Made by a program: the position numbers and the translations under genes. Below the pieces are notes generated by a model. The model was not told the DNA's origin and did no database searches. It was given only the letters and a program-made list of their open reading frames with translations. A stretch of DNA of 64,000 nucleotides from Octopus vulgaris (Eukaryota), in assembly GCA_951406725.2 (NCBI GenBank), contig OX597835.1, forward strand, positions 27,652,001 to 27,716,000. The letters run 5' to 3'. Position 1 is the stretch's first letter. Each line of letters begins with the position of its first letter. Shown here one piece after another: positions 14,471 through 49,551 of the stretch.

Positions 14471-14712
14471 TATATATATAATGTGCTGCTTTCATTGTCT
14501 GAACAGATCCATAGTGTGCCATATGCCAGGGGTGAAAGTGATCGTAGAGAAATGCAAGATAGAGTATTTTGCTCAAGAAAATAAAGCATCACCCAGTCCA
14601 GGAATTGAAACCAGGATCTTGCAATATCCTAACCACAAGGTCATGTGCCCTCACACATATACATATATAATGCAAAAACACACTGCAGACTGTGATTCAC
14701 AGGCTGGTACTG

Positions 14713-15022
14713 GTCTGGTGACTCCTACCCTAAGTCATATGCTTCAGGACCCATGAGTCTGTACGCTTGAGACAGTCTGGTGACTCCTACCCTAAGTCAT
14801 ATGCTTCAGGACCCATGAGTCTATAGGCTTGAGACAGTCTGGTGACTCCTACCCTAAGTCATATGCTTCAGGACCCATGAGTCTATAGGCTTGAGACAGT
14901 CTGGTGACTCTTACCCTAAGTCATATTCTTCAGGACCCATGAGTCTGTACGCTTGAGACAGTCTGGTGACTCCTACCCTAAGTCATATGCTTCAGGACCC
15001 ACGAGTCTGTAGGCTTGAGACA
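14713..15022. repeat. 62-bp minisatellite, 5 near-identical copies
   Basis: Unit GTCTGGTGACTCCTACCCTAAGTCATATGCTTCAGGACCCATGAGTCTGTACGCTTGAGACA starts at 14713, 14775, 14837, 14899 and 14961. Confidence 0.95.
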
Positions 15023-16106: not shown

Positions 16107-16139
16107 CTGTTATAATCATCAGCTTCGTCATTGGAACAA
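16107..16139 (-). CDS. unc-13: 33-nt phase 2-2 microexon: (S)CSNDEADDYN
   Basis: ctaattccttactttccag|TTGTTCCAATGACGAAGCTGATGATTATAACAG|gttcgt. Branch-like CTAAT present. Paralogous to 36611-36640. Confidence 0.65.
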
Positions 16140-16329
16140 CTGGAAAGTAAGGAATTAGACAAATTGTTGAAATGAATCAACGTGCAAAGAAATTATTTCG
16201 TCTCTCTTTTTTTTTTTTTTCTGCAATGGTTTTTCCCTGTAAGAGACTTTTGGAAATTGGTAAATGAAATGGAAAGGGCCATGTATTTATTTTGATGTGG
16301 TTCTCTGTATTATGTGTATGTGAGAGGGT

Positions 16330-16660
16330 GAGAGAGAGATGGAAAGGCAGAGAGAGAGATGGAGAGGCAGAGAGAGAGAGATGGAGAGGCAGAGAGAGAG
16401 ATGGAGAGGCAGAGAGAGAGATGGAGAGGCAGAGAGAGAGATGGAGAGGCAGAGAGAGAGATGGAAAGGCAGAGAGAGAGATGGAAAGGCAGAGAGAGAG
16501 ATGGAAAGGCAGAGAGAGAGATGGAGAGGCAGAGAGAAAGATGGAGAGGCAGAGAGAGAGAGATGGAGAGGCAGAGAGAGAGAGATGGAGAGGCAGAGAG
16601 AGAAATGGAGAGGCAGAGTGAGAAAGATGGAGAGGCAGAGAGAGATGGAGAGGCAAAGAG
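16330..16660. repeat. 20-bp purine-rich minisatellite (ATGGAGAGGCAGAGAGAGAG)n
   Basis: Directly visible tandem units. Confidence 0.95.
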
Positions 16661-18379
16661 AGGTGGAGAGAGAAGCAAATTTTGAGCGTTAATTAAAATC
16701 TAAATGTTTGAAAGTTATAGTTAAGAAGAGCAAAATGCTGAAGAGTGTGCACACACAGGTGTGTGTATATGTGTGTGTGTTTGTGTGTGTTTGTGTCTGT
16801 GTTTGTGTGTGTGAGTGTGTGAGTGTGTTTGTGTGTTTGTGTGTGAGTGTGTTTGTGTGTGAGTATGTTTGTGTGTGTTTGTGTGTGTCTTTGAGAGAGA
16901 GAGAAGACTGTGTTTGTGTCTGATAAAGAGAGAGATAGACTATATGCAAGTGTGCTGAGAGAGAGAGACTCTGGTGTGTGTGTGTATGTGAGAGTAAGAG
17001 AGACAGAGCTAAAAGTGACGGAAAGGGAAAGAGAGAATCTGAACTCAAATGCTTGAAATTAGAAATCAAACAACAGCAAATGACTGACATTTTTTTTTAT
17101 AAAAATAACCAAGACCCAACTTTTTCAAAATCTCACTTACATCCATGCTGTGCTTGGAATATACATTGCCCCCTCACCCAGCATATGACTGGTACCTTAG
17201 TTTACCAACCACAGAGAGATGAAAATCAAAGTTGACCTCAATAGTAATAATAATAGTAAAATCACTTCAATGTAAATATAGCCACTCTTCAGGTTAAAGA
17301 CAAAAGCAATAAAATAGTTAATTAGATAAATTAATAACTATACGTAAATAATCTTGTAAAATACGAAATATCTTAAAAAATATATTCTTGTTTAAATATT
17401 ATCATTTCTTAAATATAGCCATGAAACATGTGTCGTTATTTTACCAAATTTATACATTTTATTTACTATTTAGCATATTACTTAATCATTGTTATATGTT
17501 TTATCTTATATTTAATCTTTCTATAATATGTAATTTTTCTAAATGGTATAATTTAATTTTTCATTATTGAATTGATAAAAGGTGGTTGATTTCTGATATA
17601 TATATATATATTATATTTTGTGAAATTTGATTTAGTATTTCTAAATTGAATTTTTCCCTGTAAGTTTGGAATAATATTCCCTCATATTATTATTATTATA
17701 TATATTATATAATTATCTAATTTGTTTACTTGCATAACTGCAAATATATACATATATATATATATATATATTGTTTAGGCATATCAATACAAACAACCTG
17801 GTGTTAGAATTCATATGCTTCAAAATATAGTGATAGCCGAGTACAGAGCATAAAAGGAAATTAAATTAATAACAAAGTTACAAGAAATTGTGAAATTGTT
17901 ACATTATGAACTGCATTAGCTTACAGCTGTTTCTGCTAAAAGACATAGTGCACTCAAAACTGAGTGCTTGTGCATCACATTATTACTCTGAAAAAGTGCC
18001 AGCCATCACTTGCAAGCAAGTATGGATTGGTAACATGTACCATGCTTTCAGAAATTGCTTTAGGTGCCTGCATAGTCACAAGCACACAGATATATTCTAG
18101 ACTCTCAGACCTTTCCATGCTGTGGCACAAGCAGTATGTAACAGCTGGAGGGACAGTTTGATGCACAAGCAACCAGCTGCAACACATTCTCATCTGTGTA
18201 GACTTGGGTAATGTGAAATGACGTGCCTTGCTCAAAAAAAAAATACAATGCACTACTTGATCCAAGGATTGAACTCATGGCATTATGGTCATGAGCCGAA
18301 CATATTAATTACAATGATACACACTTTCACCACATACATACATACATTATATGGATACACATATATATGTATCTATGAA

Positions 18380-18431
<52 letters not shown>

Positions 18432-18751
18432 TATTTATACATGGATACAGGCACACAGATACAAAGGCATGAAATTGTAATGATCTTTTTGACATTGACT
18501 GACGAGGGATTAACCATGGATTTTCTTTTTATGTTTTTGCAAAAATTTTCTGTTTGCTGTGTTTTTGCTAAATTTTTTAAATATGAACACGCACACATCA
18601 ATATATGCATATATATCTTAGTCTATTACTGTATTGACCAGACTATTAGACATTGTTATAAACTGCTGATCACAATGCGCTTCCTTGCATTGTTGTAGCT
18701 TACAAATAATACTACACATATTTACACATACATACAAAATATATGTGTGTA

Positions 18752-18790
<39 letters not shown>

Positions 18791-20159
18791 GTGTATATAT
18801 AAATATATATACACACACACACACATGATATAAACGTAGATACAATAAAAAATGTTAAAATTTATTAAAAAAACTTCATGCAATATAAGAAAATTCGCAT
18901 TCTTTGCACATGCCTTTGTTTTCATTAGATTTCAAATAAAGAACAGAAAAAAATATTGATGCAGAGACAGAATATGAAATCCATATATATATATATATAT
19001 ATATGATGTATATGAAAATTTGTTAGCTAGTGAAGATTGGAGAAATCAATATATAGAGAACTGGCAAATGATCACGGCTGTGACCAAACAAATGAAGCTG
19101 ATGCTGTCAGTTTTGTTTTGCATGCTTGCAATGAATTCACGACGGAATTTACAGATGACGGAACATGATTTCGAAGAAGAAGCATTGATTTCTTCATCTC
19201 TATCACAAGATATAGCAATGAAAATTGCTGATAAGTGCTTAATATGACAAATAAAGATAAAAAATATAGAAAGTAAGAAAGGAAATATATGCTAACCAAA
19301 TATTGCACAATTATGGAGAAGCAGCGGATGTGAAGACATTGGTTGACAGTAAACACCAAAATGGATTCAAATAGAAGTCATGGCTGTATAGTTAAGACAT
19401 TTGGTGGGTTCAAAACCCTATGGTTCTAGGTTCAAACCCAATGCCCAGCAGCTTGAGTAAATGGGTTCCACTATAGCCTTGGGTTGATCAAATGTCTTCC
19501 GAGTTGAAATTTTTGATAAGCTGAATCTGTACGGATTCTTATCAAAGATGTGTATAACAATACATACAAACACACACACATACATACATATATATAAATG
19601 CATATTACTATATATTATATAAATATAATTATAGGATATATATACATAACTCTATATATGATATATATATATATATATATAACTATATACATGAGATCTA
19701 TATATATATATATATATCATCATCATAATTGTCTAACGTCTGTTTTCCGTGCTGGCAATGGTTGGACGGTTTGACCAAGGATTGGCAAGCCAGATGGCTG
19801 CACCAGGCTCCAATCTGATCTGGCAGAGTTTCTACAGCTGGATGCCTTCCTAACGCCAACCACTCAGAGTGTGTAGTGGGTACTTTTACGTGCCACCTGC
19901 ATGATGGCCTGTCAGGTGGTACTGGCAACAGCCATGCTCGAATGTTGCATAGTCATATCTCTTGCACACCACATCTGATGCTTCTTATGTCCAACTTTTC
20001 TCTCAAGGCACTTACACTCAGTCGAATATGCACACTGACATTACACATCCAGCAGAGCATACTGGCTTCATTCCTTGCAAGCTTACACATGTTTTTTTCC
20101 ATACCAAAACTAATTGGTAAAATTTATTAATTATTAAATTAACAATTCTTTACCCTATA

Positions 20160-20207
<48 letters not shown>

Positions 20208-20487
20208 CATACAATAGGCTTCTTTCAGTTCCTATTTATCAAATCCACTCACAAGGGTTTGGTCAACCTGAAGCTATAGTAGAAGACACTTACCCAAGAT
20301 GCCCTGCAGAGGGACTGAACCCAGAACCATGTAGTTGGGAAGCAAACTTTTTACTACACACCTAAGTTGAGTGAAAGGTTTTTGGGTTTTTCACTATGAT
20401 TTGTGGCAACTTGTATTCCCACAATTCTTTTTATTTTTCATATATAACATATAAACATTGTCAATTCTTTATTCTACAGCTTTGATA

Positions 20488-20697
20488 ATGAGTGGTGAAA
20501 CAATTGCAAACAGAACCTTGTACACCACCTGTGGATAAAAAAAAGGGACTGAATGCAAGGCCAGCAACAAAAGAAATTGATGATGTGGAAGACCCAGGAA
20601 CTGTCAACAAACAAGTGGCACAAAACTAGTTTAGACATTTCAAGGAAGGCAATACCAGCCAAGAAGTCAAACCAAGGTCAGTAAAGACCTTCTGTTG
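20488..20697 (+). mobile_element. Mariner transposase N-terminal HTH fragment
   Basis: KGLNARPATKEIDDVEDPGTVNKQVAQN*FRHFKEGNTSQEVKPRS matches the mariner WF.RFK.G..SL.D.PRSGRP motif. Confidence 0.7.
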
Positions 20698-20989
20698 TAC
20701 CTTGGGCAAGTATCTTTACTATAGCCTAGGGCTGATCAAAGCCTTGTGAGTGAACTTCATAGATGTACACACATACATAATTATATACATAGCAGGTTTC
20801 TTTCAGTTTCCATCTACCAAATCCACTCGCAAGGCTTTGGTTGGCCTGGTACTAGAATTGAAGACACTTGGCCAAGGTGCCACGTAGTGAGTCTGAAACC
20901 CAGAACTATATGGTTGGGAAGCAAGCTTAAACTTCTTACCACACAGTCATGCCTGTGCCTATAAAAGATTCAGAATTTCATTGAGCCTA

Positions 20990-21061
20990 AGGGGACACCT
21001 GGGATAGAACCGGGGACATCATGATCTGCAGTAGAATGCTCTCCCACTCAGCTATACCTCA
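20990..21061 (-). pseudogene. tRNA-Cys(GCA) pseudogene
   Basis: 72 nt, TGAGGTATAGCTGAGTGGGAGAGCATTCTACTGCAGATCATGATGTCCCCGGTTCTATCCCAGGTGTCCCCT. Colinear with the animal tRNA-Cys sequence as I recall it (about 13 mismatches). Anticodon loop CTGCAGA; stems and T-loop are damaged. Confidence 0.75.
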
Positions 21062-23695
21062 CTACTATGATGGGTTTCTCATTGTTATTGTCTGCCTAAT
21101 TCACCCGTCATCAAGGTTGACTTAACAGTTACATAATAACAAGAACCATAACTTTCTTCTCAACTATCAACAGCCAAACTAGAGAATGAGTAATAATAAC
21201 AACAACACCAACAACAACAACTACAGTGACTTAGTAACAAAATTTCTGCAACACTGAAATACTAAATAGAAGTCACGGTACATTAGATAATCACTCAATA
21301 AAACTTTAAAGCTAGACTAGATAATCATCGTCAAGTTCAAGGTCAATTTGGTTTTCAGACTTCCAGGAACATACTAGAAGAGAATGATTAAAAGCCAAGC
21401 AAGCATTCATTTTCATTGCACTTTCCTAAATTAAATTAAATTATCTTCAAATACTCTTAACATTCTGGAAATTCTTTCTTCTGTAATCTGGATAAAACTC
21501 AGTGTTGAAGACCGCCGAAAACCAATTCTGCCCGAGACTCGTTACAAGATAACGAATTTCAAATAAGGCAGATAACAGACTAATATTCTAATATTGGAGT
21601 CAATAAATCAAAACAACCGATAGTTTTATTAGAAGCATCTGCAGAGATTTGTATATGCATTCAGTTTGGCGGTGTGGTTAAGAATTCACTGCACAACTGT
21701 GTGCTTTCTGGTTCAGTTCCACTGCCCAACACCTTGGAAAAGTATCTTTTACTATAGCCTAGGGCTGACCAAGGCCTTGTAAGTGAACTAGGAAGACAAA
21801 AAATGAAAGAAATAGATCACACATAAACACACACATGCGTGTGTGTGTGGGAGAAAAATTAGTTCAAGTAGAACAATTTGAACTTTTTGGGGAGTCCAAA
21901 AGGTTAGATTTCTAATAAAGATTTTTCATATCAAAATAGTAACTTTCTATTGCAAGTATTTGAAATATGAAAATAAGACAATTAAAAATATGTTATGAGT
22001 ATTAAAGGATAAAATCTTCCATAAACCCAACTAACAGTTAAAAAATGGAGAAGAGATGTTAAAAGTTTTTATAAATTTTTAATCCAATTTATAAAATTTA
22101 TAAAAACTTTTAACATCTTCTCTTCTCCATTTTTTAACTGTTAGTTGGGTTTATAGAGGATTTTTATCTTATAATACTCCATAACACATTGGGCAAGTGT
22201 CTTCTATAATGGCCTCGGGCTGACCAAGACCTTGTGAGTGGATTTGATAGAAACTGAAAGAGGCTCATTCTATGTGTATCATATGTTATCATATAGAGTG
22301 GAAGTTTAATACGAAGTTTTGAACTCATCATCTTGTGGTTAGTAATCCATTCCCTTAAATTTGAAGCCATTCTATCTTTAAACATTATTTTACTGGGTTT
22401 CTAACCACATGTTGCTAGATGTGGTGGGAAAATATTCACAATATTCCATTCTACAAACTACACAGTCCAAGTGAAATTGAGAGAAAAATCAGAGAAAAGA
22501 ACTTCGTCAATAAATTCCAACCCAAACTAAATAAGCAGTAATACTATGACTTAGAGGTACTATTTCTGCTGCTACAACCACTACCACTAACAACAATACT
22601 AAAGGTGCTCATGATGATGATAACAGGATAATATTAGCTAAGTCAAAAGAAAAATGAGTAAAAATAATCTTATTTTGGTGTTTAAAGTTCTGTCACCACA
22701 GCTACTTTTATCACCACTACCACCACCAATAACAACAATGACAACAGTAATAAAAGAGATGATAATGGTGATGATGATAAATGAAATGTAAAAATCCCTG
22801 GGAAATGTTTACAGCATTTCTAAAAATAGCCCAACAATTACTGCTTTGGTCAGGGTCAAAATACAAGTCTCTTGACATATTCAACAAACCGTAATGCCTA
22901 AACCAAACACCAATCAACTTAGGTAATTTAGTAAAGCCACACACTGATTGGTCAGAAAACAGTTTGCAAAAACTAACATTCTGCAACCTGTACAAATGTA
23001 TTTAAGGCACACAGCTTAGCCATCTCACTACAGCTGTAAATTGTAAAACATAACCGTCATCACTACAACATAAACCTGAAGATTGCCTAGTTTAATTCAT
23101 GAAAGTACTAGTTCAGTCAGAATGGACATTTGATATTCTATCGTTTCATTATATTATATTATATTGTAGGTAGTGAGGCTCCGAAAGGTGTCTCAGGGAG
23201 TAGCATCCCTGCCTTCCTGAGTTAGTTTTCCACCACATTCCTTAAAAATCGTGGTAGAGGCTGTGGTCTTAGGACCACTCATGTCTAGAAACTGAGGTTG
23301 GGTAGTAAGCAAGCGCATACTCCTTGTAGAAAATCCAGCTCCAAAAAAGCCTCATGATAGCAGGGGAGAATGGGCACCAGCCAACCCAAAGGTAGGGGTG
23401 GGCTACACCTGCCTGCCTCAGTTGCTATGGCATTAAGGTAGATCCAGCCACCCCTGTTAATGAGGACAAAACCTGGATTTAAAATACTAGATGATGATGA
23501 TATTAACATATATTATTATAAGCTGGTAAATAAAATATGAAAATCAGACAAGGTTGGAATTTCTTTGACTAATATATATATCTATGTGTATATATACATG
23601 GGAAGGTTTACGAAAATAAACAAAAGACGAAGGCAGGTGGTGGAGTACAAACAAACAAATGTATTAGTATAGCGTTCAGAAATAGAAATAGAAAG

Positions 23696-23733
23696 TCTTT
23701 TACGTTTCGAGCCTACGCTCTTCGACAGAAAGA
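23696..23733 (-). ncRNA. Minimal hammerhead motif with CUGUCGA core, in a short Penelope-like repeat (about 23598-23768)
   Basis: TCTTT-CTGTCGA-A-GAGC-GTAG-GCTC-GAAA-CG-TA-AAAGA. Stems I and II pair perfectly. Confidence 0.6.
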
Positions 23734-24255
23734 TACACAGAAAAAAACAAGGAGAGAAAAAAATGCGTATGTATGTATGTGTGTGTGTGTGCATATTATA
23801 CAGATATATCAAACAAAACCAGGATGTTCACAGTCATCATTTGTTTGTAGGTTTGATTCATCTGGGCCAACTAGCATGGTGGTGGTGGCGGTGACAGTGG
23901 TGGTGGAGGTAACTAAACCAATAAAAACAACAACAAGTCTGCCTGATCAGATCTGAGACCAAAGAATCAACCGATAAAACAGACATAACAAACAACAACC
24001 AAACAGTAAACCATTTGCTATGAATAAAAGAAAATCCAGAAAACACAAGCATTTCAAAGCTGTCTGAGAATTTCTGCCGTCATTACTAAATCAAAACACA
24101 AAAAAAAATTACCATCAAAACAACAGCTGAGAAGTTTTTTTTTCAAATAGCAAAGAACAATAACTATTTGAATTTCAATGTGTCCTGTCAACTGATTTTG
24201 TACAGTATTTATAATCTTGATCCCGAGGCTATTTTGATCAGTTTATCTGACTTAA

Positions 24256-24474
24256 CCCTTTAACATTTCACATTTCTATGTTCAATGTAATGTTTATTTA
24301 TTCACATTGCTCTGAATTAATCTTATGTTATCTCATAGCACCGAGATTTCAAAAGCTGTGATTGCTCATTTCCGGAACGACATTGTAGGGTATGTATGAG
24401 AAGTTGAATCCGGCTGGTTCAAATATACAAGGGGATTATTTGGGCTGGGTTTGGCTAGTTTACATGCAAAAGGG
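24256..24474. mobile_element. piggyBac-like MITE
   Basis: TTAA|CCCTTT ... AAAGGG|TTAA termini; interior homologous to 7886-8105. Confidence 0.7.
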
Positions 24475-25031
24475 TTAAAGAAAAAGCAAAATGAATCAAA
24501 GGCGTTAAGCAAGGTTTTTTACTTTGTTCATTGTTTTTTGTTTTTCTCCCCCCCCCCCAACATTCATTCATTATGCAAAAGTCTCAATGAGCCTAAACTG
24601 CTCGACAGCTTAACTTTTGAACTTTTTAAAAAATATTGTATAATATTCTTCTTAATTAATCTTTATTATTCCTGTTTTCAAAATGCTTTGCATATCTTTC
24701 AAAGAAGATAATTTATTCTTGGGAAGAATTTTTTTTGTTTTTTAAAATAATTATTTATGGAAATGCAATTTTCTGATATAATCTTCTATCCATAAAATGT
24801 GAAAAAAACAAACAAACAAACAAACAAACAAAATACTGGCACAGGCGTAGCTGTGTGGTAAGAAGCTTGCTCCCCAACCACAAGATTTCAGGTTCAGTGC
24901 CACTGCGTGGCACGTTAGACAAGTGTCTTCTTCTATAGCCTTGGGCCAACCAAAGCTTTGTGAGTAGATTTGATAGATAGAAACTGAAAGAAGCCCATCG
25001 TATATATATATAGATGTATATATATATATTC

Positions 25032-25068
<37 letters not shown>

Positions 25069-25082
25069 TGTATATACATGTA

Positions 25083-25128
<46 letters not shown>

Positions 25129-25140
25129 TACATGTATATA

Positions 25141-26100
25141 CAGGATGAGATGGGTAAATTGTCACCATTTTATATTTTTAATTTTGTGCATGTGCATTGT
25201 TTGTTTTGATTTTGTTGACTACACAGTATAGTAGGGTCAGTTGGGCACCATCTGTGAGAAAAACAGCACCATGATGTAATTCACTCTGCCAGAAATTTGG
25301 AAATGACATGTTGTACTGCTTCGCATTCGTGCCGGAAGCCCCAATACGAACAAGTCAGAGTGTTTTGGTGTCAATTTGAGAACGGTGCAATCTGAGAACA
25401 GGTACCAAGAGTGATAAAAATCATATATCCAGTCAATAGCATGGTGTTTGGAGTGATCACTAGCGATGGCAACGTTATGCCTCCATTCATCTTCCCACAT
25501 GGTCTCTAATTCAACACGGAGGCCTACATCAAGTGCCTGGAGGACGTAGTGCTGCCCTGGGTCAGGAAGGTGGCTGTTAGAAGATACTGTGTCTGGCAAC
25601 AGGACTCTGCACTATGCCACACAAACAAGAAAAACCAGTCATGGGTGTCAGACAATTTCTGCGACTACATCACCCCTAACATCTGGCCACCTAACTCCCC
25701 AGACTGCAACCTCCTTGATTATTATGTGTTGGGTGTAGTTGAGTGAGAGACCAACAAAACTTCTTGTAACACCAAAGAAGAACCGAAGGCAAGGATTATG
25801 GCAGCATTCACCAACTTAAACAAGGAGACCATCTAGAAGTGTTGCAGGAGATTCTGAAGTCGTCTGGAGGCCGTGGTTGAAGCCGATGGCAATTTTATTG
25901 AATGTATTTATTCTTTCATGAAGTATATTTGCCACCTAAATGTGGCTAACCCTTAAGGGTCGATGCTATTGTAGCTTGTAGTCCCAAGAAGACATCTCCT
26001 CCAGCTGGTTATTGACACACTATCTGTGCCCTATCAGTTTTGATGTAATTTTGGTAAATATGTATGTTAAAATGAGATGTCAGTGTTACTTTCATTTTTG
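25141..26100 (+). mobile_element. Decayed, internally deleted maT (DD37D, Bmmar1-like) DNA transposon
   Basis: TA then CAGGATGAGATGGGTAAATTGTCACC left end. Relic frames MVFGVITSDGNVMPPFIF and WQQDSALCH...WPPNSPDCNLLDY, with 37 aa between the last two catalytic Asp. In-frame stops; right TIR not found. Confidence 0.85.
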
Positions 26101-28514
26101 TGTATATCAATGGCTAACTAACTACAAGTATATAAATGACTGTTGAGCTACGTCAAACCTCATCTCCATCAAACCATGCCTAAGATCTAAAATCCTTAGA
26201 TATTTTGGGAACTTTCAAAGATGTATTATTTCTTTTAATACCAACTGCTTTGGATCTATTATACAAATTTCTTATTTTAAAGTAAATTAAAATATACTAT
26301 TAAAATTTAATATTAACTCAAGCTCCGGGCACCAACTTAATAATGATAAAGTTGTTTTATTAAAATCTTCAATATTTTCAAAATTAATTGAAACACATAT
26401 AGTTAAGGTGAGACAGTGTCACATGACAACTTGCTGGGGCTGCCTGCTGGAGTCTAGCGGCAGGTATTTAAAGGGAAAAAATTTGGCAAGTCAGCCAGTC
26501 ACTGGCTGACACTCGCTGATGCTACATCGAAGAGGCCAGGGAACAGAAGAAGAAAGAAGACACGCCTTCAACACCAGAGCTGAAGACACCTACGAAAGGG
26601 GGGGTGGCCACCACGTCAAAACGGTAGAGGAGTAGGGGCCAAAACCAGACGTGGTTCCTCCTGATGATGTCTTGAGCTAACTGGATCCTATAAAGGAGCT
26701 GTTGTGGTAGCAGACCATGAAACACGGTTGTAATTCCTCCAACTGGAATTTGGTAATGAAAGAGTTAAGGTTTGTCTTTGGAGACTGGTGGAAGAAACCC
26801 TGGTGCACATAAACAAAGATGGAAGAAACACATTGCAGATGGCATATTGGTGCCTTTTTGTTTTTAAAAAACAATAATCTGGTTTCATTCCCTACCATCG
26901 ACTATTTTCATACAAATTTTCAATATAATTTGTCTTCATCTCATCCATCCATCTTCTCCACCCTCTAATTCCTGGGAGGGTCATGGGGGTAGAGTCCTTA
27001 GGCACCTCTTCCACAGGGTCCTATCAAAAGCAACCAAACTTTACACCTTCCAACTGAATTCCCATGCATGACCAAACGAGATGTTGAATATTATTCAACC
27101 AGCTTTTTCTTGGTCAAGCCTTAGGTCTTGGTTGAATGGCTGTCTACATGATATAGTATTATCAGTTAGTAAAAAGAGTGATTTAACATTAAAGGAAATA
27201 GTGTGGACTGTTATCAATTAGTAATTAAAATTTTGAAATTAATATTGTTTCTATTATTTCATAAATTTCAGCTTCAGGAACAAAATTTGAATGAAACCAG
27301 TTTTCAAACACCACAGCGAACAGCCATTATTTATATCTGTACGCCAACGAACTGAGATAGAGTAATTTTTATTCATTTCCCTCATTACACATGGATTAAG
27401 ACTAAAACCCCTATTAATTAATAATGGCTTCAGAAAACAGTCCCTTAATGCATTACATCATAATAACAATGAGGCTTGATCATCAGACGGTTTGAATCCA
27501 TTAACCATTTTGCACTGTTCTTGGTATAAATATTCTCTTTGGGATTTTCATCTAAAGCAGTCTGATTTGATTAGCATTAAGTATTTGGTTTAAAGAACAG
27601 GAACTCTAGTGATCAATTATCTTTAACTAGCTCTAGCACAAATTCTTCAGCAGTTGTCTTATTGTTTCATTACATTTTTACTGTAGAAAGCTTTGACTTT
27701 TAAAATTCTCAAGGCAACCCTTGCAGCCTGAAAATCCAAGTTGTAATTGATTAGATGTTTGATTTGGGATGGTGGTTTGATTAAAAATCCTTGCTGCTTT
27801 CATTGTGTGGTAAAGTTGTCTACAAGCAATCTTTTCATTCAAAATAATAAAGCAGTTTTTTTCCCCTCTCCCCACTCCTCATTATTTACATAAAGCTATT
27901 GCATATGTATGACGTGTGCTTTGAACTTATTGGAAGATTCTGCCTTATAACTATATCTTTGGTTTTTGCTATATCTTTTTATACGGTTTCACTATATCTT
28001 TGTCTTCCATTGTTAAAACGATTTCTTTGTTGGCATTGAACTGTTTCGAATTTCTATTGAACCCCCACCTTCCTCTTGAAAGTTAACTTAACATCTTAAT
28101 TTTGATTTTTAGAGATTTTGGTTTCCTTATCTGTTTTTTTTGGGTTTGACATGCGAAACTCTATTATTCAATCTCAGAATTATTTAACAACATATGAAAT
28201 ACATAAACAAATAAATGTAACTCAGGTGTTACTATAGAGTGTCATGTGTCTCATTATTGTAGAAGAGAAATGAATGAAAATAACGAGAAATAAATCACCG
28301 AAATGGAAATGACAAAACAAAAAAAATGGTATTTCTGGATGATAAATCAGCATCAAAAACATTTAACATCCGCTTTCCATGCTGGCATGGGTTGGACACC
28401 TTGACAGGAACTGTCAAGGCCAGGAGCCACACCAGGTTCCATAGACTGTTTTTGCTTGATTTCTACGGTTGGGATTCCCTTCCTAATGTCAACCACTCTA
28501 CAGAGTGTACTGAG

Positions 28515-29000
28515 TGCTTTTTATGTGGCACCAGCACCAGTGTTTTTTATGTGGCACCAGTGCCACCACTGTTTATGTGACACCAGCACCAGAGCTTTTT
28601 TTTATGTGGCATTAGCACCAGTGATTTTTATGTGGCGCCAGCACCAGTGCGTTTTTTTCTTCTGTGACACCAGTACCACTGCTTTTTACATGGCACCATC
28701 ACTTGTGCTTTTTATGTGACAGCAGCACCAATGCTGTTCATGGGACATCAGCACCAGTGCTTTTTACGTGGCACCAGCATTAGTGCTTTTTTATGTGGCA
28801 CCATCACCAATTCTGTTCATGTGACACCAGCACCAGTTCTTTTTCTGGAACCAGCATCAATGCTTTTTATATGGCACCAGCATTAGTGCCTTTTATGTGG
28901 CACCATCACCAATGATTTTCATGTGACACCAGTATCAATGCTTTTTACGTGGCACCAGCACAAGTGCTTTTTTATGTCACCAGCACCAGTGGTTTTTACG
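28515..29000. repeat. ~26-bp degenerate minisatellite grown from SINE family C
   Basis: Repeated TTTTTATGTGGCACCAGCACCAGTGC, contiguous with a minus-strand family C copy. Confidence 0.85.
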
Positions 29001-31175
29001 TGTTTCTAGATGATAAATCATCAACAACATTTATCATCCGCTTTCTATGCTGGCATGGGTTGGCAGGAACAAGCTGACAAGAACTGGCAAGAACAGGGGC
29101 CATGTATACCCACATGCATACATACACATGCAGCGGCACACACAAATGATGGACTTCCATTGCAGTTCCCATCAGCCAAAATTTCACTCACAAGGCATTA
29201 TTAAACAATGTGAAGCTATAGCAGAAAAAACACTTGGCCAAAGTGCAGCTGCATCACAAAACCAAAAACGAAAAAAAAAAAAAGCACATGGTTGCAAGTT
29301 GAACTTCTTAATCAGAAAGCTATGCAGGCGTCAGCTTGTTGCAACCGAATAAATCAAAGTCATCGTAAGTAAATATTTATCCAGCCACATGGCAGCACCA
29401 ATGCAAAAATGTAAATATAATTCTGAGAATTTACTTGCAGCTGTTCAATTACAGAAAAATAATGGAATAATGAAGAATTACGGCCAGAACAATATCTAAA
29501 AGTCTTGAAGAACATGAAATTTTAAAGAAGTCAATTATATATAAATTTAAAATGTTTTTTTTTTGTTTTTTTACTTGCTTCAATCATTATCCCAAGACTT
29601 CTTTTCTGTTTTTTTTTAAGCCTGGTATTCTACTCTTTTTGCTGAACATCTAAGTTACAGGGATGTGAACAAACCAACATCAGTTGCCTAGCTGTATTGG
29701 CTTTTGCCTTTCCCTTGGGCAACATTGGTGGCATGGAGAGGGGAGGTTGGTATGCATGGGTGACTACTGGGCTTCTGTAAATAATCTTGCCCAGACTTGT
29801 GCTTCGGAGGGTAACTTTCTAGGTGCAATCCCATGGTCATTCATGGTCCTCAATACCTACATTTACATATACCTATACACACATTTAAACAAACCATGTC
29901 CAGTCTAAATACCTTGTTTAATGTTCAGACTGGCCTGAATCGGCCTCTCACACCTATCCAACAATGTCATTTTAAAAATAAATGATCATATCATCGAAAT
30001 TTTGAAACTACAAAATATCATCATCATCATCACTTAACATACGCTTTCCATGCCGGCATGGATTGGATGGTTTGACAGGAACTTGACTTTCCATCCAGTA
30101 AAACTGAATTATAGATTTGACAGGAGCTGGCAAACCAGAGGACTGCACCAAACTCCACTGTCTGCTTTGGCATGGATTTTTATGGCTGGATGCCCTTCCT
30201 AATGCCAACCACCTTACAGAGTGAACTGGGCACTTTTTTATGTGGCACCGACACCAGCTTCAGCGAGGTCTGTTTTGGCATGGATTTTTTATGGCTGGAT
30301 GCCTTTCCTAAAGCCAACCCTTCTACAGATAGGACTGAGTGCTTCTGATTAATTCAAAACAAAATGAATAAATAAGCATTACATTTGATTCAATTAAATG
30401 AATGCTAAATAGTTAATATAAGTTACATTGGTAGACATAGTAAAGTATTCATCTTTTATTTGTCTCAATCATTAAACTGTGGCCATGCTGGGGCACCAGC
30501 ATGAAGAATTTTTCGTCAAATATACTGACCCCCTGTACTTGTTTTTAGTCAAGCTTGGTTCTTATTCTATCAGTCTCTCCTGCCAAACCACTAATTTAAA
30601 GGGACATAAACACACCAGTGCAGGTTGTCAAGCAGTTGTGAGGGGACAAAAATAGACACAAACATACGCACAAATACATAGATACAGATAAATAATGGGC
30701 TTCTTTCAGTTTCCGCCTACCAAATCCACTTATAAAGCTTTGGTTGGCCTGAAGCTATAGTTGAAGACACTTGCCCAAGGTGCCATGCTGTGGGACTGAA
30801 CCCTGAATCATGTGGTTGGGAAGCAAGCTTCTTATCACACAGCCATGAAATCAAGATGTCTAAGTATTTAGCTATGGGTATTTCCTCTCTGAGTGGAAAT
30901 CACATAAGCGTCAACTTGTCCTACACTGTTCTACAGGTTGTTAAAAATCGTAAAGCACCAACATACTGGTGCTGTAATGACATCAAGATGATCAACTACA
31001 TCCTCCCACACCAAGAAAGCAAAAAGAAAAAAATGAACCCTTAATAAACCCTGAGTTCTTCAAGCCAATGTGAAACCTTTATGTTATGTTTAGGCTGTTT
31101 GTTGCATTTTGTTTCCATAAAGTCAGAAATCTAAGTTAATTACCTACACACATACATATGCACACATGCATGATT

Positions 31176-31475
31176 TTGTTTGTTCCTTCTCGAGCCACAC
31201 CTGGCTCATAAGGGCCAGTTTCCCGGTTTCCTTGGCGTATAGGTTCCCCACCTTGATGGAACGCCGGTCCGTCGAAGGTGAGCTGCAAGATGCAGGAGGA
31301 AAGAGTAAGAGAAAGTTGTGGCGAAAGAGTCAGCAGAAGTTCGCCATTACCTTCTGCTGGAGCCATGAGGAGATTAGGTGTTTTGCTCATAAACACACAA
31401 ATCGCCCGGTCTGAGATTCGAACCTGCGATCCCTCGACCGCTAGTCCTCTGCTCTAACCACTAGGCCATGTGCCT
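31176..31475 (-). mobile_element. tRNA-derived SINE family D
   Basis: Head TGGCCTAGTGGTTAGAGC...GGTTCGAATC and tail GGCTCGAGAAGGAACAAACAA. Copies at about 3863-4147(-) and 63695-63952(+, internal deletion). Confidence 0.85.
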
Positions 31476-31916
31476 CCATACATGTATGTGTATATCATGT
31501 GCACACTATGTGCACATGCAATACTACATGTGCACATAGAATGCACACATGTGCACATAACTAGCTGTACACATACATGTGTGTATGCTGCACATGTGCA
31601 TGTACATAGTAAGCATGTATGTGCACACAGCAATGCCTATATGTGTATATGCATACATAGAACACACACATGCAAGTGTATATGTCTGTGAACATAGCAT
31701 GCATATATGCACATGTGTGTGTGTGTGTGTCTGTGTGTCTGTGTGCGTATAGCATACCTGCAAATGGATTTCTGTCAGTTTGAACAATTAGTGTTCAGTT
31801 GTTTGATTGACAGAACTCGCAGCTCTTTAGTGTGGAACCGACTGGGAATCCCACATAGAGACATGCACTCTTAACATAATTCCCAGTTGGAATTGGCATG
31901 TGACAAGGCTGGACCT

Positions 31917-32696
31917 TTAACCCTTTCAATACCATACTTCTGGTGAAATGCATCAGCATTGTTTCAATTAATTTTGGAAACAGCGAAGAATTCAACAAAA
32001 TAACTTCGTCGGCATTAAGCTGGTGTTTGAAATATAAATCAATATGGAATCTTGATGGAATGTTTATAATTTAGATCACTTTAACTCTTTAGTTACCATA
32101 TTTTTGTTGAAATACACAGCCATTGTTTCAATTAATGAAAAATTTAGCAAAATAAGTGTCATTGTTAAGCTGGTGTTTGGGACAAAAATTAACAGGAAAT
32201 TTTGATGGATGGCTATAATTTAGATCACTTTAACTCTTTAGTTACCATATTTTTGTTGAAATACACAACCATTGCTTTAATTAATGAAAAATTTAGCAAA
32301 ATAAGTGTCATTGTTAAGCTGGTGTTTGGGACAAAAATTAACAGGAAATTTTGATGGATGGCTATAATTTAGATCACTTTAACTCTTTAGTTACCATATT
32401 TTTGTTGAAATACACAGCCATTGTTCCAATTAATGAAAAATTTAGCAAAATAAGTGTCATTGTTAAGCTGGTGTCTGGGACATAAATTAACAGGAAATTT
32501 TGATGGATGGCTATAATTTAGATCACTTTAACTCTTTAGTTACCATATAAAGTAACTGTCATTATAAAGCTGGTTCTTAGTACATGAATTCACATGGCAT
32601 TTTGACGGAAGATTTTAGTTTAGATCATTTTAAAATTGGAATTCTGTATCATGCCACCAGGGCTGGTCTCAGATTGGTTGGTACGAAAAGAGTTAA
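31917..32696. mobile_element. piggyBac-like MITE with an internal 149-bp tandem array
   Basis: TTAACCCTTT start and AAAAGAGTTAA end. TTAGATCACTTTAACTCTTTAG recurs at 32071, 32220, 32369 and 32518. Confidence 0.7.
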
Positions 32697-33590
32697 ATTA
32701 CAGGGACAATCCATCCTTTGGTTCTCCACAGAGTTGCCATCTTATCAACCAAGTTTCTCGCAAAAGACTTCAGTAAACTTGAGGTTTATGGTAAAACAAT
32801 CATTTCTGGCCTAAGATAATGCTTAGATAAGATTGAGTCTTAGAATTTTATTATTGCTAAGCAACCTGCTTAATCATTCAACCAAGCTGTGTTCACATGC
32901 CCCTGTGTGCTCTGTGTGTGTGTGTGTGTGTGTGCATGCATGTGGATGCGCTTAACTGTTTTTAAACAATCAAAACATGGATATGTACCAAACATAAGCT
33001 TTTTTTAATGAAAAGCCCAGATTTTTTCCCTCTAATGTTTTTGCGAGAAAGAGAGAAGATATAAAAAGAAGTGAATGAGAGAGAGAGAGAGGAGGAATGA
33101 CTGCGGGAGAGATAGAGAAGAGGAGAAAGAGGGAGAAGGGAAGGAGAGAGAGAGATATTTAATTAACAAGAAATTTAGGGCAAAACAAATCTTAGCAACG
33201 AATTTACCTCGTTTTAGTCTTTTATTCCTTAACTTCTTTACCGTTTATCGACCTCCGATGAATTTTCTTCAGAACATCATGCAGTGTTTTGACTCCCAAA
33301 CACACAGCAGAAACCAATGATGATGATGTTGATGATGATGATGTTGATGATGATGATTGTGATGATACCATCTCAAAAAGACATGTACCACAGAGAAGAG
33401 AGAGAGAGGCAGACAGACAGACAGGAGAAAACGAGAGAGAGAGAGAGGTGTTGCTTGCTATTTTAATGATGAAGTGAGGTACAGAATAGAGAAGAGAGAG
33501 AGAGAGAAATAGAGAGGAAGAAAGTATGTGGCATGTGAGTTTTCGTCGGAGAGAAAGGGGAAAAAAGGGAAAAGGAGGAGAAGGGGAGGG

Positions 33591-33656
<66 letters not shown>

Positions 33657-35017
33657 TATCTGCTGTCTAAACGATGATATAATTGATATAAGGTACAGAA
33701 TTGAAAATAGAGAAAGAGAGAGAGAGAGTGAGAGATTTGGTTTTTCTCTCTTAAGTCCTTTAACTTAAAACAGATATAAATAGAAAGTGAGAGAGAAAGA
33801 GAGTGAGAAGTGAGAGAGAGAGAGAGATGTTACCTGCTGTCTAAATGATGACTTAACCCAAAAGACACACAACAGAATAAAAAAAAACGACAGAAAATAT
33901 GAGAGAGAAAAAGTGAGAGAGAGAGGAGGGAGAAGGGGGAGAGAGAGAAGGAGAAAGAAAGAGACAAAGCGACATAGAATTGTTACCTGCTATCTCAACT
34001 GCCATTTTTTTGTGTGTTTTTTGCTTTTTTTCCCCTTTCCCATTTAAATAGCTGCTTCCCAATAGTCATACATACAGAACTATTTTGAGAGTAAAAAAGT
34101 AAAGCGAAAATAAAATTTAAAAAATGAAAAAAAAAACATAAAATAGAATCAAAAACGGTACTGCTGCTGCACCATTCCTTTTATTCTTCCCATGAACAAT
34201 AAGTTGCACATCAGTCAATCCATTGTAAGAACAAGAAAGAAAGAAAGACTATTTTTTGGTGAAAAATTCTAATCCAATTACTCGTTATTTTTGTTCTTCT
34301 TTCTTTCTTTCTTTCCTTTTCTCCTCCCTCTCCCCCTCTCTCTTTCTTTCTTTCTTTTAAGCCATTTTAATAATTCCTAACGAAAAATATTTCCTTCTTA
34401 CATAAATTATGATTCATATATTCTCAATTTAACAAGGTTGTTACACCAAAAATAAACCGGTAGAAAAAAAAAAAAAGAGATGTTATTTTGTTTGTTCGTT
34501 CGTTGTTTATATTTTTCGAAACGAGATCAAACAAATAAACAAACAAAAGTGCAGAAAAAAAACAGACAATAAAACAAAAAAAAAAAGAATCAAGCAAACC
34601 CGATTTTGTTTCTCAAAGAGAAATAAAACACACACAGGTATAGAAATTGTGTAACGGAGAGTAGTTGAGCACGTTGGCAATGAACAGTGTTTAAATGTTG
34701 CGAACTAGTCTCACACAATAACATATCAGTGAACAAGTGGTTTGTTTGTTTTTTTTTTGTTTTTTGGCAGAGCAATTATTATTATTGTTATCATTAAGGT
34801 GGCGAGCTGGCAGAATCGTTAGCAAGCCAGGTGAAATGTTTAGTGGCATTTCGTCTGTCTTTACGTTCTGAGTTCAAATGCTGCCAAGGTCAACTTTGCC
34901 TTTCATACTTTCAGGGTCAATAAATTAAGTACCAGTGAAATAATGGGGTCGATGTTATCAACTAATCACCACTCCCACACCCTGAATTTCAGGACTTGTG
35001 CCTTAAGTAGAAAGGAC

Positions 35018-35089
<72 letters not shown>

Positions 35090-35113
35090 TGTTATTATTA
35101 TTATTATTATTAC

Positions 35114-35158
<45 letters not shown>

Positions 35159-36310
35159 TGTTATTATTATTGTTATTACTATTGTTATTATTATTATTAT
35201 TACTGTTATTACTATTGTTATTATTATTATTATTACTATTATTATTATTATTATTATTATTATAATTATTATTATTATTATTAAGGCCTCACAGAGGAAA
35301 TGATGAAGACCGAGACCTCTGAGATATGCTGTGATGCGAAGACCCAACAAATGAAGTGAGTTCATGGCTTGCAGGATGGCCTGCTGTGCTAACCTTGGAT
35401 CTTGCTAAGCAATGTTCTTGAGGAGACCTATTGAGTCAAGTATGTCAACACCAACATCAAAATTGTAGTTAAGTTACCCGTGCCAGTGGCACGTAAAAAG
35501 CACTATCCGAGCGTGGCTGATGCTAGTGCCACCTGACTGGCGATCGTGTCGGTGACACATGAAAAGCACCAACCAATTGTGGCCGTTTGCCAGCCTCCTC
35601 TGGCTCCTGTGCCAGTGGCATGTAAAAAGCACCCACTACACTCATGGAGTGGTTGCATTAGGAAGGGCATCCAGCTGTAGAAACAGTGCTAGATCAGACT
35701 GGAGCCTGGTGCAGCCTCCTGGCTTCCCAAACCCCGGTCGAACCGTCCAACCCATGCTAGCATGGAAAACGGACATTAAACGATGATGATGATGATGAAC
35801 TGGCAGAATCATTAGCACAGAGGATGTAATGCTTAGTAGCCTTAGTTCATCTTTATGTTCTGAGTTCAAATTCTGCTGAGGTCGACCCCTTTCAGGGTTG
35901 ATGAAATAAGTTCCAGTTGAGCACCAGGGTCTATGTAATCAACTAGTCCCCTCCCCTTAAATTTCAGGCCTTGTACCTTTAGTAGAAAAGATATTATTAT
36001 CATTATTATTATTATCAACATTATTATTATTATTATTCCTGATTTCATATTCCGCTGAAGTCGACTTTGCTTTTCATCCTATCGGAGTCGGTTAAATAAG
36101 TACCAGTTGTGCACTGGGGTTGATGTAACTGACTTAAACCCTTCCCCCAAATATCAAGCATTGTCCCTACAGTAGAAAGGATTATTATTATTATTATTAT
36201 TATTATTATCATCATTTATAAAATAAGGATAAAAATCACGTTAATGATAATTATCAGATAGTCAACATGGAAAAAAGCAATTTATATATATTTATATATT
36301 AAATTAATAA

Positions 36311-36352
<42 letters not shown>

Positions 36353-36610
36353 CTATTTTAGTCACATGTATTTATGGAGTTTTTTCAGCAGCTTCATAAT
36401 GCTTGGACATTAATTCAGTATGGAGAAGATAAGGCTTGTTTTGACTTTTTCCCTTAAAATAATTATATATATGTATATAATCATTAAATTAATATTATTA
36501 TTATCATTATTATTATTAAGTATAGCAAAAAATAATTATAAAGAAAGTATAGCTATACATATATACATATATATATTTATATATATATATACATAATGAT
36601 GAATACTGAC

Positions 36611-36640
36611 CTGTTATAGTCTCCTTCTTCATTGGAACAA
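36611..36640 (-). CDS. unc-13: 30-nt phase 2-2 microexon: (S)CSNEEGDYN
   Basis: tttctttccttttaatatttcag|TTGTTCCAATGAAGAAGGAGACTATAACAG|gtcagt. Paralogous to 16107-16139. Confidence 0.7.
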
Positions 36641-36910
36641 CTGAAATATTAAAAGGAAAGAAAAATGAAAAATAGAGGGAAATGATTATAGCTTTAGGCA
36701 CAAGTAATAAACCATTTGCATTGTACACCATTTTAAAATGATCTAAGGAATGATGAAGGTGGTGGAGACGACGACGACAACAATGATGATGATGGTGATG
36801 ATGATGATGTAGGTGAGGATAATACATTAATCTCCTGACTATCGTGGGTGTTACGTTCCAGCCCCACCCCGTGGTGAGTGAAAATCCACGAAGTAGAAAC
36901 AGTACTGTAA

Positions 36911-45893: not shown

Positions 45894-45953
45894 CTGTAGT
45901 CTTGTGTGCTTTGTCTGCTTACATTCAAGGAAGAAACATGGCTGTCAACAGGA
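45894..45953 (-). CDS. unc-13: 60-nt phase 2-2 exon of the same gene: (S)PVDSHVSSLNVSRQSTQDY
   Basis: Branch-like CCTTAC, then ctttctctcccaacag| acceptor and consensus donor CAG|GTAAGT. Phase matches the upstream phase-2 donor. Confidence 0.7.
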
Positions 45954-47110: not shown

Positions 47111-49069
47111 GCGCACATGCACACACAAACACACACATATATTTCGAAAGTTTAGTATTACTCATTGTAAAATGCCAACCCAAAGGTCATTAGAAGTGCA
47201 TATTTTAGTTCGTTTAAATAAGTGAAGTACGTACATGTTTTATTGATTGAGAAACGATGGCATAAAACAGATCAATAACTTCTCTCTCGCAATGACCATT
47301 AAGACATTCAACAATCTAAACTATGTGAGGAGTACTTAAAATTTCAGTTTGCTGTTTATAAATCTGTAGAAAGAAGCACAACTTCCTTCGGATCCGTTTT
47401 ATTTACAGTTTAGCCTTTTTAATATAAACCATTGCATCAGAGGTCGGACGTACTTTGTCAACTGTTCACTACTTTATTGACCTTGAGAGAAATTGAAAGC
47501 CCAGTCAAAGTCAAAAACCAAACAGCCTGAAGGAAGCCCCCCCCCCGCTTCTATGCATATATATATATTTCTATATTGCCCACAAGGGGCTAAACATAGA
47601 GGGGACAAACAAGGACACAGAAAGGGATTAAGTTGATTATATCGACTCCAGTGCGAAACTGGTACTCTATTTATTGACCCCGAAAGGAGGAAAGGCAAAG
47701 TCAACCTCGGCAGAATTTGAACTCAGAACATTACGACAGACGAAATATCTATTTCTTTACTACCCACAAGGGGCTAAACACAGAGAGGACAAACAAGGAC
47801 AGACAAAGGGATTAAGTTGATTATATTGACCCCAGTGTGAAACTGGTACTTTATTTATCGACCCCGAAAGGATGAAAGGCAAAGTCAACCTTGGCGGAAT
47901 TTGAACTCAGAACGTAATGACAGACGAAATACTGCTCAGCATTTCGCCCGGCGCGCTAACATGTCTGCCACCTCACCACCCTACTATGCATACATATAGG
48001 AGCAGGGATGGCTGTGAGGTTAAGAAGCTTCATTTATAATCACACGGTTACGGGTTCAATCCTACTATGTGACATTTTGGGACGACCGATGCTTGTGAGT
48101 GAAGTTGATAGGCAGAAACTGTATGAAAGCCTATTGTTACTGTGTGTCATTAACATAGCAAGTGGGGTGGGGGAGGAAAGTGAGTGGTGGTCTTCCGTGG
48201 GCAGCACTTTTATGGGGACAGCACCACTTTTGGGTCTGCTGTAGTCAGCATGTTTCCTTTGTTGGGGCTCCAGGTGTGGCACACACTCTAGCTATGCTAG
48301 TGCTGTGTGTGTGTGTATGTTTGAGTCTGCGTTTGTCCCCCTCCACTGTGATCAACAACTGATATTGGTTTATTCATGTCCCATAACTTAACAGTTCAGC
48401 AAAAGAGACCAATAGAAAAAGTACCAGACTCAGAAAAAAAAGTAAAAATCTGAAAATAAATACTGTGTACTTGACTGATCCTTAATTTATCGACCCCCAA
48501 AAGGATGAAAGGCAAAGTCGACCTCGGCAGAATTTGAACTCAGAACGTAGTGGCAGAAGAAATACAGCCTAAGCATTTCGCCCGGCGCGATAACGATTCT
48601 GCCAGCTCACAACCATAGCAATGATGATGATGATGATGATGATGATAAGGATAACAATAATAAAAATTTATAATAATAATAATAATAATAATGATAATAA
48701 TAATAATAAAAAACAAATCACAGCACATACCCAAGGCACACAGAGCTGCGCTCGGTAGTGAAGTGAAAGCACGCTATAAAAATAAAACTACTGAATAATA
48801 ATAATAATAATAATAATGAAATCAGAAAAACTGGAAATCCATTCAAATATCCATACATAATAATAAATCGGTATTTTATGATGTAACTAAATCTTTCATG
48901 GCATTTTGTCCAAATACTAATGATTCTGCTAATCCACTGCACCAAATACAAAAAAATAATAAAAATAGAAACTAAAAAAAAAAAATTCAAAGCCCAACCA
49001 ACAACAGTTGGGAACCCACTCAAATATCCATGCATAATAACGAACTAATATTTTCAATTTGTTACATAC

Positions 49070-49144
49070 CTATCGTTTATGAAAGATTGTGGTCTACTAT
49101 TTGGTCTGCTGTTATAGTAGAGCAGTTCTGAATCAGTATCACTT
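49070..49144 (-). CDS. Candidate 75-nt symmetric (phase 2-2) exon created by tandem duplication of the 3' end of the 277-nt exon
   Basis: ttttttgtatatggtag|AAGTGATACT...AACGATAG|gtatgt. Encodes (R)SDTDSELLYYNSRPNSRPQSFIND, with 2 substitutions relative to the parent copy. Confidence 0.35.
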
Positions 49145-49274
49145 CTACCATATACAAAAAAATAATAAAAATAGAAACTAAAAAAAAAAACTTAAAAATC
49201 CAACCAACAACAGTTGGGAACCCACTCAAATATCCATGCATAATAACAAACTGATATCTCAATACATTACATAC

Positions 49275-49551
49275 CTATCGTTTATGAAAGATTGTGGTCT
49301 ACTATTTGGTCTGCTATTATAGTAGAGCGGTTCTGAATCAGTATCACTTCTACCAGGGTAATATACCCCATCTTGATAATAATCGGGCTCACGTTCATAC
49401 CCGCGGTCGAATGACCCGAAATCCTCTTTGCTGTCATTGTGCTGCATTCGAAATCCATGGTCTCCGCGAAACTGATGGGCTGAGCTGTTGTGTTGATGCT
49501 GCACGGGGAAGTTGACATCACTTGTATAGTCGCTATCTTCGGACATACCAG
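49275..49551 (-). CDS. unc-13: Internal coding exon of an unc-13/Munc13-like gene (linker after the C2A domain)
   Basis: Acceptor tttttgcag|CTGGTATG (phase 1) and donor GATAG|gtatgt (phase 2). The open frame GMSEDSDYTSDVNFPVQHQHNSSAHQF...DSEPLYYNSRP resembles the SEDSDYTSD / N.S.HQ motif I recall from invertebrate UNC-13 (vertebrate Munc13 has DSDYRSE...NASVHQY). It is CpG-rich unique sequence inside repeats. The ATG is probably internal. Confidence 0.75.

Follow-up and report, generated by a model that had tools for sequence, protein, structure and literature searches.

Unc13 proteins set release probability and short-term plasticity, and no part of them is less well understood than the N-terminal linker. 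The subject here is a pair of very short paralogous exons, A and B, in the linker-coding part of an unc-13 gene of Octopus vulgaris, found in a window of 64,000 nt (contig OX597835.1, positions 27,652,001 to 27,716,000; coordinates below are those of the window). Several described systems lie close to this pair. The VLK microexon of unc-13, 9 nt long in C. elegans and Drosophila and 6 nt long in mammalian Unc13c, illustrates how few linker residues tune release by neuron type (PMC12287369). In C. elegans the X domain, between C2A and C1, holds release back, an action for which calmodulin binding is not needed (PMC6779330, PMC11991699), and in Munc13-1 the polyE segment (residues 317-370) folds back on the MUN lysines K1494, K1495 and K1500 until Ca2+ releases it (PMC12184661). 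Tandem duplicated exons are common and usually tied to mutually exclusive choice (PMC9013439). Finally, the neural microexons controlled by Srrm3/4 (eMIC) carry a UGC near the acceptor, a long AG-free zone and a CUAAY branch point (PMC8797185).

Exons A and B are, with near certainty, real duplicated coding exons. Microexon A (36611..36640, minus strand) is 30 nt long, has phase 2/2 and the donor GTCAGT, and adds SCSNEEGDYN with three acidic residues, while microexon B (16107..16139, minus strand) is 33 nt long, has phase 2/2 and the weaker donor GTTCGT, and adds SCSNDEADDYN with four acidic residues. Both follow a pyrimidine tract, begin with TTGTTCCAATGA directly after cag and end with TATAACAG directly before gt, at the places and with the borders that an earlier note on this DNA had assigned to them, on the minus strand. 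The similarity of the two exons has a z of 8.7 and was reached by none of 500 shuffles, whereas their 60-nt flanks are no more alike than expected by chance (the score was equalled or exceeded by 170 of 500 shuffles upstream and by 161 of 500 downstream), and blastn of the 3-kb surroundings returned no colinear flank homology but only simple repeats and pieces of dispersed repeats. As the note had also proposed, the likeness is thus confined to the exons, and the phase-2 frame is the only one that stays open in the two exons and differs conservatively between them (CSNEEGDYN in A and CSNDEADDYN in B); of the other two frames, one contains stops and the third reads VPMKKETIT in A and VPMTKLMIIT in B. 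Six of nine codons are identical including their third positions and three are changed, in addition to one codon indel. The note's description of the changes as mostly synonymous or conservative holds as far as conservative replacements go (E/D and G/A), but only one change is synonymous (GAC/GAT). A degenerate pattern of the whole exon has two matches in the 2.8-Gb genome, both of them here, and its reversed control has none, while the acceptor 15-mer has five genome matches, three of which are followed by unrelated sequence. The dispersed-repeat check raised by the note therefore came out clean, and the genome-wide pattern counts, the shuffles and the flank comparison together rule out an origin from a dispersed repeat or by chance. 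Hamming scans of the window and of 30 kb beyond its start revealed no third paralog. The size class depends on the definition used: both exons exceed the limit of 27 nt or less (PMC8378409), both fall within a limit of 51 nt or less for frame-preserving exons (PMC12064062), and a 30-nt definition (PMC8042270) takes in A only.

The two exons are co-included and stacked, with A used together with B or, to judge by insert length, alone, and mutual exclusion is refuted as the rule. The region is anchored upstream by a big linker exon (49275..49551, minus strand, 277 nt, GMSEDSDY...SFIND, ending in phase 2), followed by E60 (45894..45953, minus strand, 60 nt, phase 2/2, SPVDSHVSSLNVSRQSTQDY), A, B and exon D, the next large exon, which is 193 nt long and falls outside the window, about 2.8 kb past its start, according to a homolog mapped on the genome. 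The introns in this order measure about 3.3, 9.3, 20.5 and 18.9 kb. All junctions between the big exon and D are in phase 2, and the frame is kept in all four A/B combinations. E60 has a duplicate in the first 60 nt of D (z = 9.6), and the two constitute repeats 1 and 2 of an older duplication. Contigs were examined from four of 24 runs (X1, X4, X9 and X17), each from a different study and carrying no tissue label, with X4 and X9 coded as the same organism and X17 as another. The 3′ end of the big exon is joined directly to E60 in all four, which shows that the contigs are spliced, although none of the runs is recorded as RNA. As E60 aligned to a contig matches twice, at E60 and at its duplicate in D, the insert was measured by the repeat-to-repeat distance, expected to be 60 with neither exon, 90 with A, 93 with B and 123 with both. 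The distance is 90 in X4 (record positions 1137 to 1227) and in X17 (4015 to 3925), a 30-nt insert, and 123 in X9 (337 to 460), a 63-nt insert made up of A and B; the X1 contig ends inside E60 and is uninformative. Judged by its length, with its letters unread, the 30-nt insert would be A, giving an A-only form in X4 and X17. Neither a B-only form nor a form without insert was seen among the three informative contigs. All four octopod proteins with a full linker (P0066, P0067, P0068 and P0072) contain both exons, a pattern at variance with mutually exclusive exons, in which exactly one of a group is included. P0180, a partial O. bimaculoides model composed of intron read-through, B and D, is not counted as a B-only isoform. 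Of the two modes of use that the earlier note had offered, combinatorial use thus stands in a narrow form, A only or A with B, and mutually exclusive use does not. Very probably B is the optional member; its weak donor, long AG-free zone and CTAAT motif fit an optional exon, and the first two suggest a regulated cassette.

Set against Srrm3/4-dependent neural microexons, the splice signals around the pair give a mixed picture. The acceptor region of A (36641..36692, minus strand) has a 49-nt AG-free zone and 17 pyrimidines in 20 positions, and that of B (16140..16202, minus strand) has a 60-nt AG-free zone, 16 pyrimidines in 20 positions and a branch-point-like CTAAT motif at -19. Over about 13 codon positions, the read-through of B's intron end in P0180 departs from the window sequence at one, and the acceptor stretch of B thus looks conserved in O. 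bimaculoides. Shared with the neural microexons are frame preservation, weak donors, long AG-free zones and, for B, the CUAAY motif; in contrast to them, A and B are longer than 27 nt and the nearest UGC lies at -60 for A and at -47 for B, some way from the acceptor in each case. An AG-free zone of 55 nt is found at the big exon, too, which looks constitutive.

Protein records place both exons in three octopod species. The joint translation of the big exon, E60, A, B and D occurs without a mismatch inside P0066 and P0068, and P0072 agrees with its linker part; the other three A/B combinations are open and match none of these records. The O. vulgaris records with A and B are CAI9738990.1 and CAI9738991.1, and the linker match in O. 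bimaculoides is UVH70864.1. The spliced peptide predicted in the earlier note, QDYSCSNEEGDYNSCSNDEADDYN, occurs letter for letter in O. vulgaris and O. bimaculoides and with one change in Argonauta; the accompanying expectation that annotation misses such exons fails, as A and B stand in public records of all three. The insert is identical at 21 of 21 residues in O. bimaculoides and at 20 of 21 in Argonauta hians (GAB1607815.1), where only 17 of 37 residues agree in the segment after repeat 2. With the Argonauta-Tremoctopus split dated to 46 Ma (29-68) and the Cirrata-Incirrata split to 101 Ma (PMC7104719), Argonauta and Octopus parted before about 46 Ma, and the age of the pair comes to several tens of millions of years or more. 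The note's reading of an old duplication under constraint is supported.

The tally of Unc13 proteins, which counts isoforms and not species, covers 197 proteins, 92 of them with both repeats; the other 105, left out for lack of two matchable repeats, are fragments, short isoforms, single-repeat Lingula proteins and scallop proteins missed by the pattern. The 21-residue insert is present in four of the 92, all octopod, and absent from 88, which include five Sepia pharaonis models, one cuttlefish-like protein (P0003), gastropods and bivalves; six scallop rows outside the tally also lack it. The repeats are spaced by 18-24 residues in these 88 proteins and by 41 with A and B. Searches centred on the insert and on short proteins, run against cluster representatives only and hence weak as evidence of absence, found a partial O. 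bimaculoides model as the sole extra carrier. Because the insert occurs in octopods and in none of the 88 other mollusc proteins, the pair looks like an octopod gain, likely by one exon duplication in that lineage; the cuttlefish side consists of protein models, so that unannotated skipped copies are possible there.

The host gene is of the neuronal Unc13/Munc13 type. The translation of exon 49551-49275 has annotated mollusc Unc13 proteins as homologs, and Pfam places C1, C2 and MUN domains on P0066 and P0072; with the exact translation into P0066, these results bear out the earlier note's assignment to an unc-13-like gene. The N-terminal C2A of octopus and its core match Munc13-1 structures, and a homolog mapped on the genome puts the C2A exons about 100-170 kb upstream. 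In P0072, the O. bimaculoides Unc13, C2A occupies residues ~1-150, A and B residues 312-332 and C1 residues 509-558, with a calmodulin-type helix assigned to start near Trp 384 by its position and by the W-x3-I-x2-V pattern (PMC9282427). The A/B insert is flanked by the repeats of the older duplication and precedes this helix by about 50-70 residues. Gastropods, bivalves and cephalopods owe two repeats of the SRQSTQDY type to that E60/D duplication; Lingula has one. A derivation of A and B from this repeat is not shown, since A against E60 gives z = 3.2 (2 of 500 shuffles) and B against E60 gives z = 1.1 (85 of 500), with gappy local alignments.

Other features of the locus concern exon duplication and alternative starts. 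Through a recent tandem duplication (48941-49355, minus strand; about 205 bp, copies 94-95% identical) the big exon's 3′ end and donor now exist twice, a snapshot of the same exon-duplication process. The duplicated stretch includes a candidate exon (49144-49070, minus strand) of 75 nt, phase 2/2, open, encoding SDTDSELLYYNSRPNSRPQSFIND behind a T-rich tract ending in TAG, which is absent from P0066, P0068 and P0072. The introns around B contain short tandem arrays at 14700-15000 and 32150-32520, with periods of ~62 and ~149 bp. In the limpet isoform P0099 an alternative first exon is spliced into repeat 2; a tblastn search with 12 short-isoform N-termini and a scan from ATG to donor gave no convincing candidate for such an exon between E60 and D in the window. 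An alternative first exon encoding MEGTDDTPCENHTTEENMR, located at L016:3534-3478 (minus strand), exactly matches O. sinensis models and belongs to a short isoform without C2A, the A/B linker and the calmodulin-type helix.

The VLK exon and the A/B pair have in common that they are small in-frame alternative exons in the N-terminal regulatory linker of Unc13. The VLK exon follows the calmodulin site and precedes C1, however, whereas A and B come before the calmodulin-type helix, measure 30 and 33 nt, are paralogous and acidic and are so far confined to octopods. An apparent VLK counterpart, VMK, is present separately in the octopus proteins P0064, P0065, P0071 and P0072. Size, position (312-332, before Trp 384) and the separate VMK rule out that A and B are the conserved VLK microexon. 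The VLK site itself varies among these four proteins, with VMK, VKVMK and two different inserts of 9-11 residues, and constitutes a second cluster of small alternative exons in octopus Unc13, outside the window. The likeness to polyE is one of position and character, as both are lineage-specific acidic segments between C2A and the calmodulin site. PolyE is a one-piece Glu/Asp run of 54 residues, whereas the A/B insert is non-homologous to it, is assembled from two separately spliced exons and contains no long tandem Glu/Asp run. Like tandem duplicated and mutually exclusive homologous exons (PMC9013439, PMC9741552), A and B show same-gene homology confined to the exons; they differ in being very short, 20 kb apart and used additively, in one or two copies.

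From YNSRP to the calmodulin-type Trp, the net charge is -9, -9 and -10 in three octopod proteins, whereas six other molluscs range from -2 to +4; by count it would be -2 with neither exon, -5 with A and -9 with A and B. Each unit adds three to four acidic residues, one S-x-x-E, one Asp-Tyr and one Cys, placed between R-x-x-S/T repeats; going by consensus motifs, these linker sites are predicted targets of CK2, tyrosine kinases and CaMKII. The segment that holds them corresponds to the X domain of C. elegans and to the region in which Munc13-1 carries polyE. A KK-x4-K patch in MUN that matches the polyE receptor by its spacing is present in octopus, and we presume its residue match to K1494, K1495 and K1500 partly from construct numbering. 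Splicing would set the number of units, A or A with B, and would thereby raise, step by step, both the acidic charge of the C2A-C1 linker and its number of predicted phosphorylation sites; more units may impose a slightly stronger restraint on vesicle priming or bring it further under phosphorylation control. X-domain inhibition, the position of polyE and the octopus patch favour such a dial, modestly tuning priming. Duplicated, stacked mini-exons acting as a stepwise acidic and phosphorylation-dependent dial on a linker that likely restrains priming are the favoured explanation, on which confidence is evenly balanced, and the component claim that A and B function through charge or phosphorylation of an inhibitory linker is put forward tentatively, at somewhat below even confidence.

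Several observations weigh against this explanation or against the pattern of use on which it builds. The MUN patch is basic in all 110 full-length proteins examined, whether they carry the insert or not, so that octopus is not singled out by it. With 7 acidic residues among 21, against 54 residues of polyE, the insert has far fewer acidic residues and the analogy is loose. The cuttlefish linker already contains a 21-mer of charge -7, compared with -8 in octopus. Conservation of the insert is no better than that of the adjoining repeats (19-20 of 20), P0066 and P0068 may be models of the same assembly and thus not independent, and the informative contigs number three, with minor forms dropped by contig assembly. 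Six of the seven conserved codons of A and B are also the same at the third position, which fits RNA-level constraint by splicing signals as well as constraint on the peptide.

The main rival to the dial is tolerated accretion, unlikely but to be taken seriously, under which frame-keeping exons in a disordered linker have little function, splice signals hold their sequence and skipping of B is leaky. The conserved third positions speak for it, and so does the coming and going of linker pieces in molluscs: scallop P0184 and Bulinus P0024 are without repeat 1, Haliotis, Littorina and Physella carry other short linker inserts, and the duplication at 49.1 kb has made an in-frame candidate exon that is used by no protein. 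It accounts less well for the near-complete retention of the insert between Argonauta and Octopus while the neighbouring segment after the repeat drifted, for the keeping of both exons across introns of 9-20 kb in three species, and for changes from A to B that preserve the acidic character. The insert might instead matter as a spacer that sets how far apart the two SRQSTQDY repeats stand or as a docking site that recruits a partner, with its length or a binding motif (Cys-Ser-Asn, acidic Asp-Tyr-Asn) rather than bulk charge on MUN as the relevant property. The shift in repeat spacing and the conserved Cys and acidic Tyr of each unit are in keeping with this, whereas a 57-residue linker query, which returned two gastropod Unc13 flank matches and three unrelated proteins without the motif, gave no partner or family match, and the proposal is regarded as doubtful. 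That A and B form a mutually exclusive pair, swapping one acidic peptide for another, is hardly credible. In its favour, the exons are symmetric paralogs, there are signs of A-only transcripts and tandem duplicates are often mutually exclusive (PMC9013439), but the two occur together in every full-linker octopod protein and in X9, no informative contig has B alone, the 20.5-kb intron allows no steric exclusion and the frame is kept in all combinations.

The sequences of A and B already stand in public protein records, and small alternative Unc13 exons are well precedented, which limits the novelty of the pair. It nevertheless appears to be undescribed as a paralogous, additively spliced and octopod-restricted pair: no description was found in the literature on unc-13, octopus and cephalopod microexons, a search outside which most subscription papers lie. 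The available text of a long-read study of O. vulgaris isoforms (PMC9699675) and that of a study of tissue-specific exons including O. bimaculoides (bioRxiv 10.64898/2026.09.05.749416) do not mention unc13, and the supplements of either may list A and B.

The unc-13 gene of octopus has gone through phase-2 exon-fragment duplication three times, at different ages, with the products side by side, and A and B exemplify an additive, as opposed to a mutually exclusive, use of duplicated exons. As a countable lineage-specific module, with no units in cuttlefish models and one or two in octopods, the pair offers a natural series for the question of whether acidic charge in the linker tunes priming. 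It also raises the question of whether octopods arrived by convergence at the principle of polyE, which is regarded as peculiar to the Munc13-1 of homeotherms. An acidic autoinhibitory segment of Unc13 acquired independently of birds and mammals, built from a duplicated microexon and dosed by splicing, would let different octopod neurons set release probability and short-term plasticity in discrete steps, an outcome that is improbable on the present evidence.

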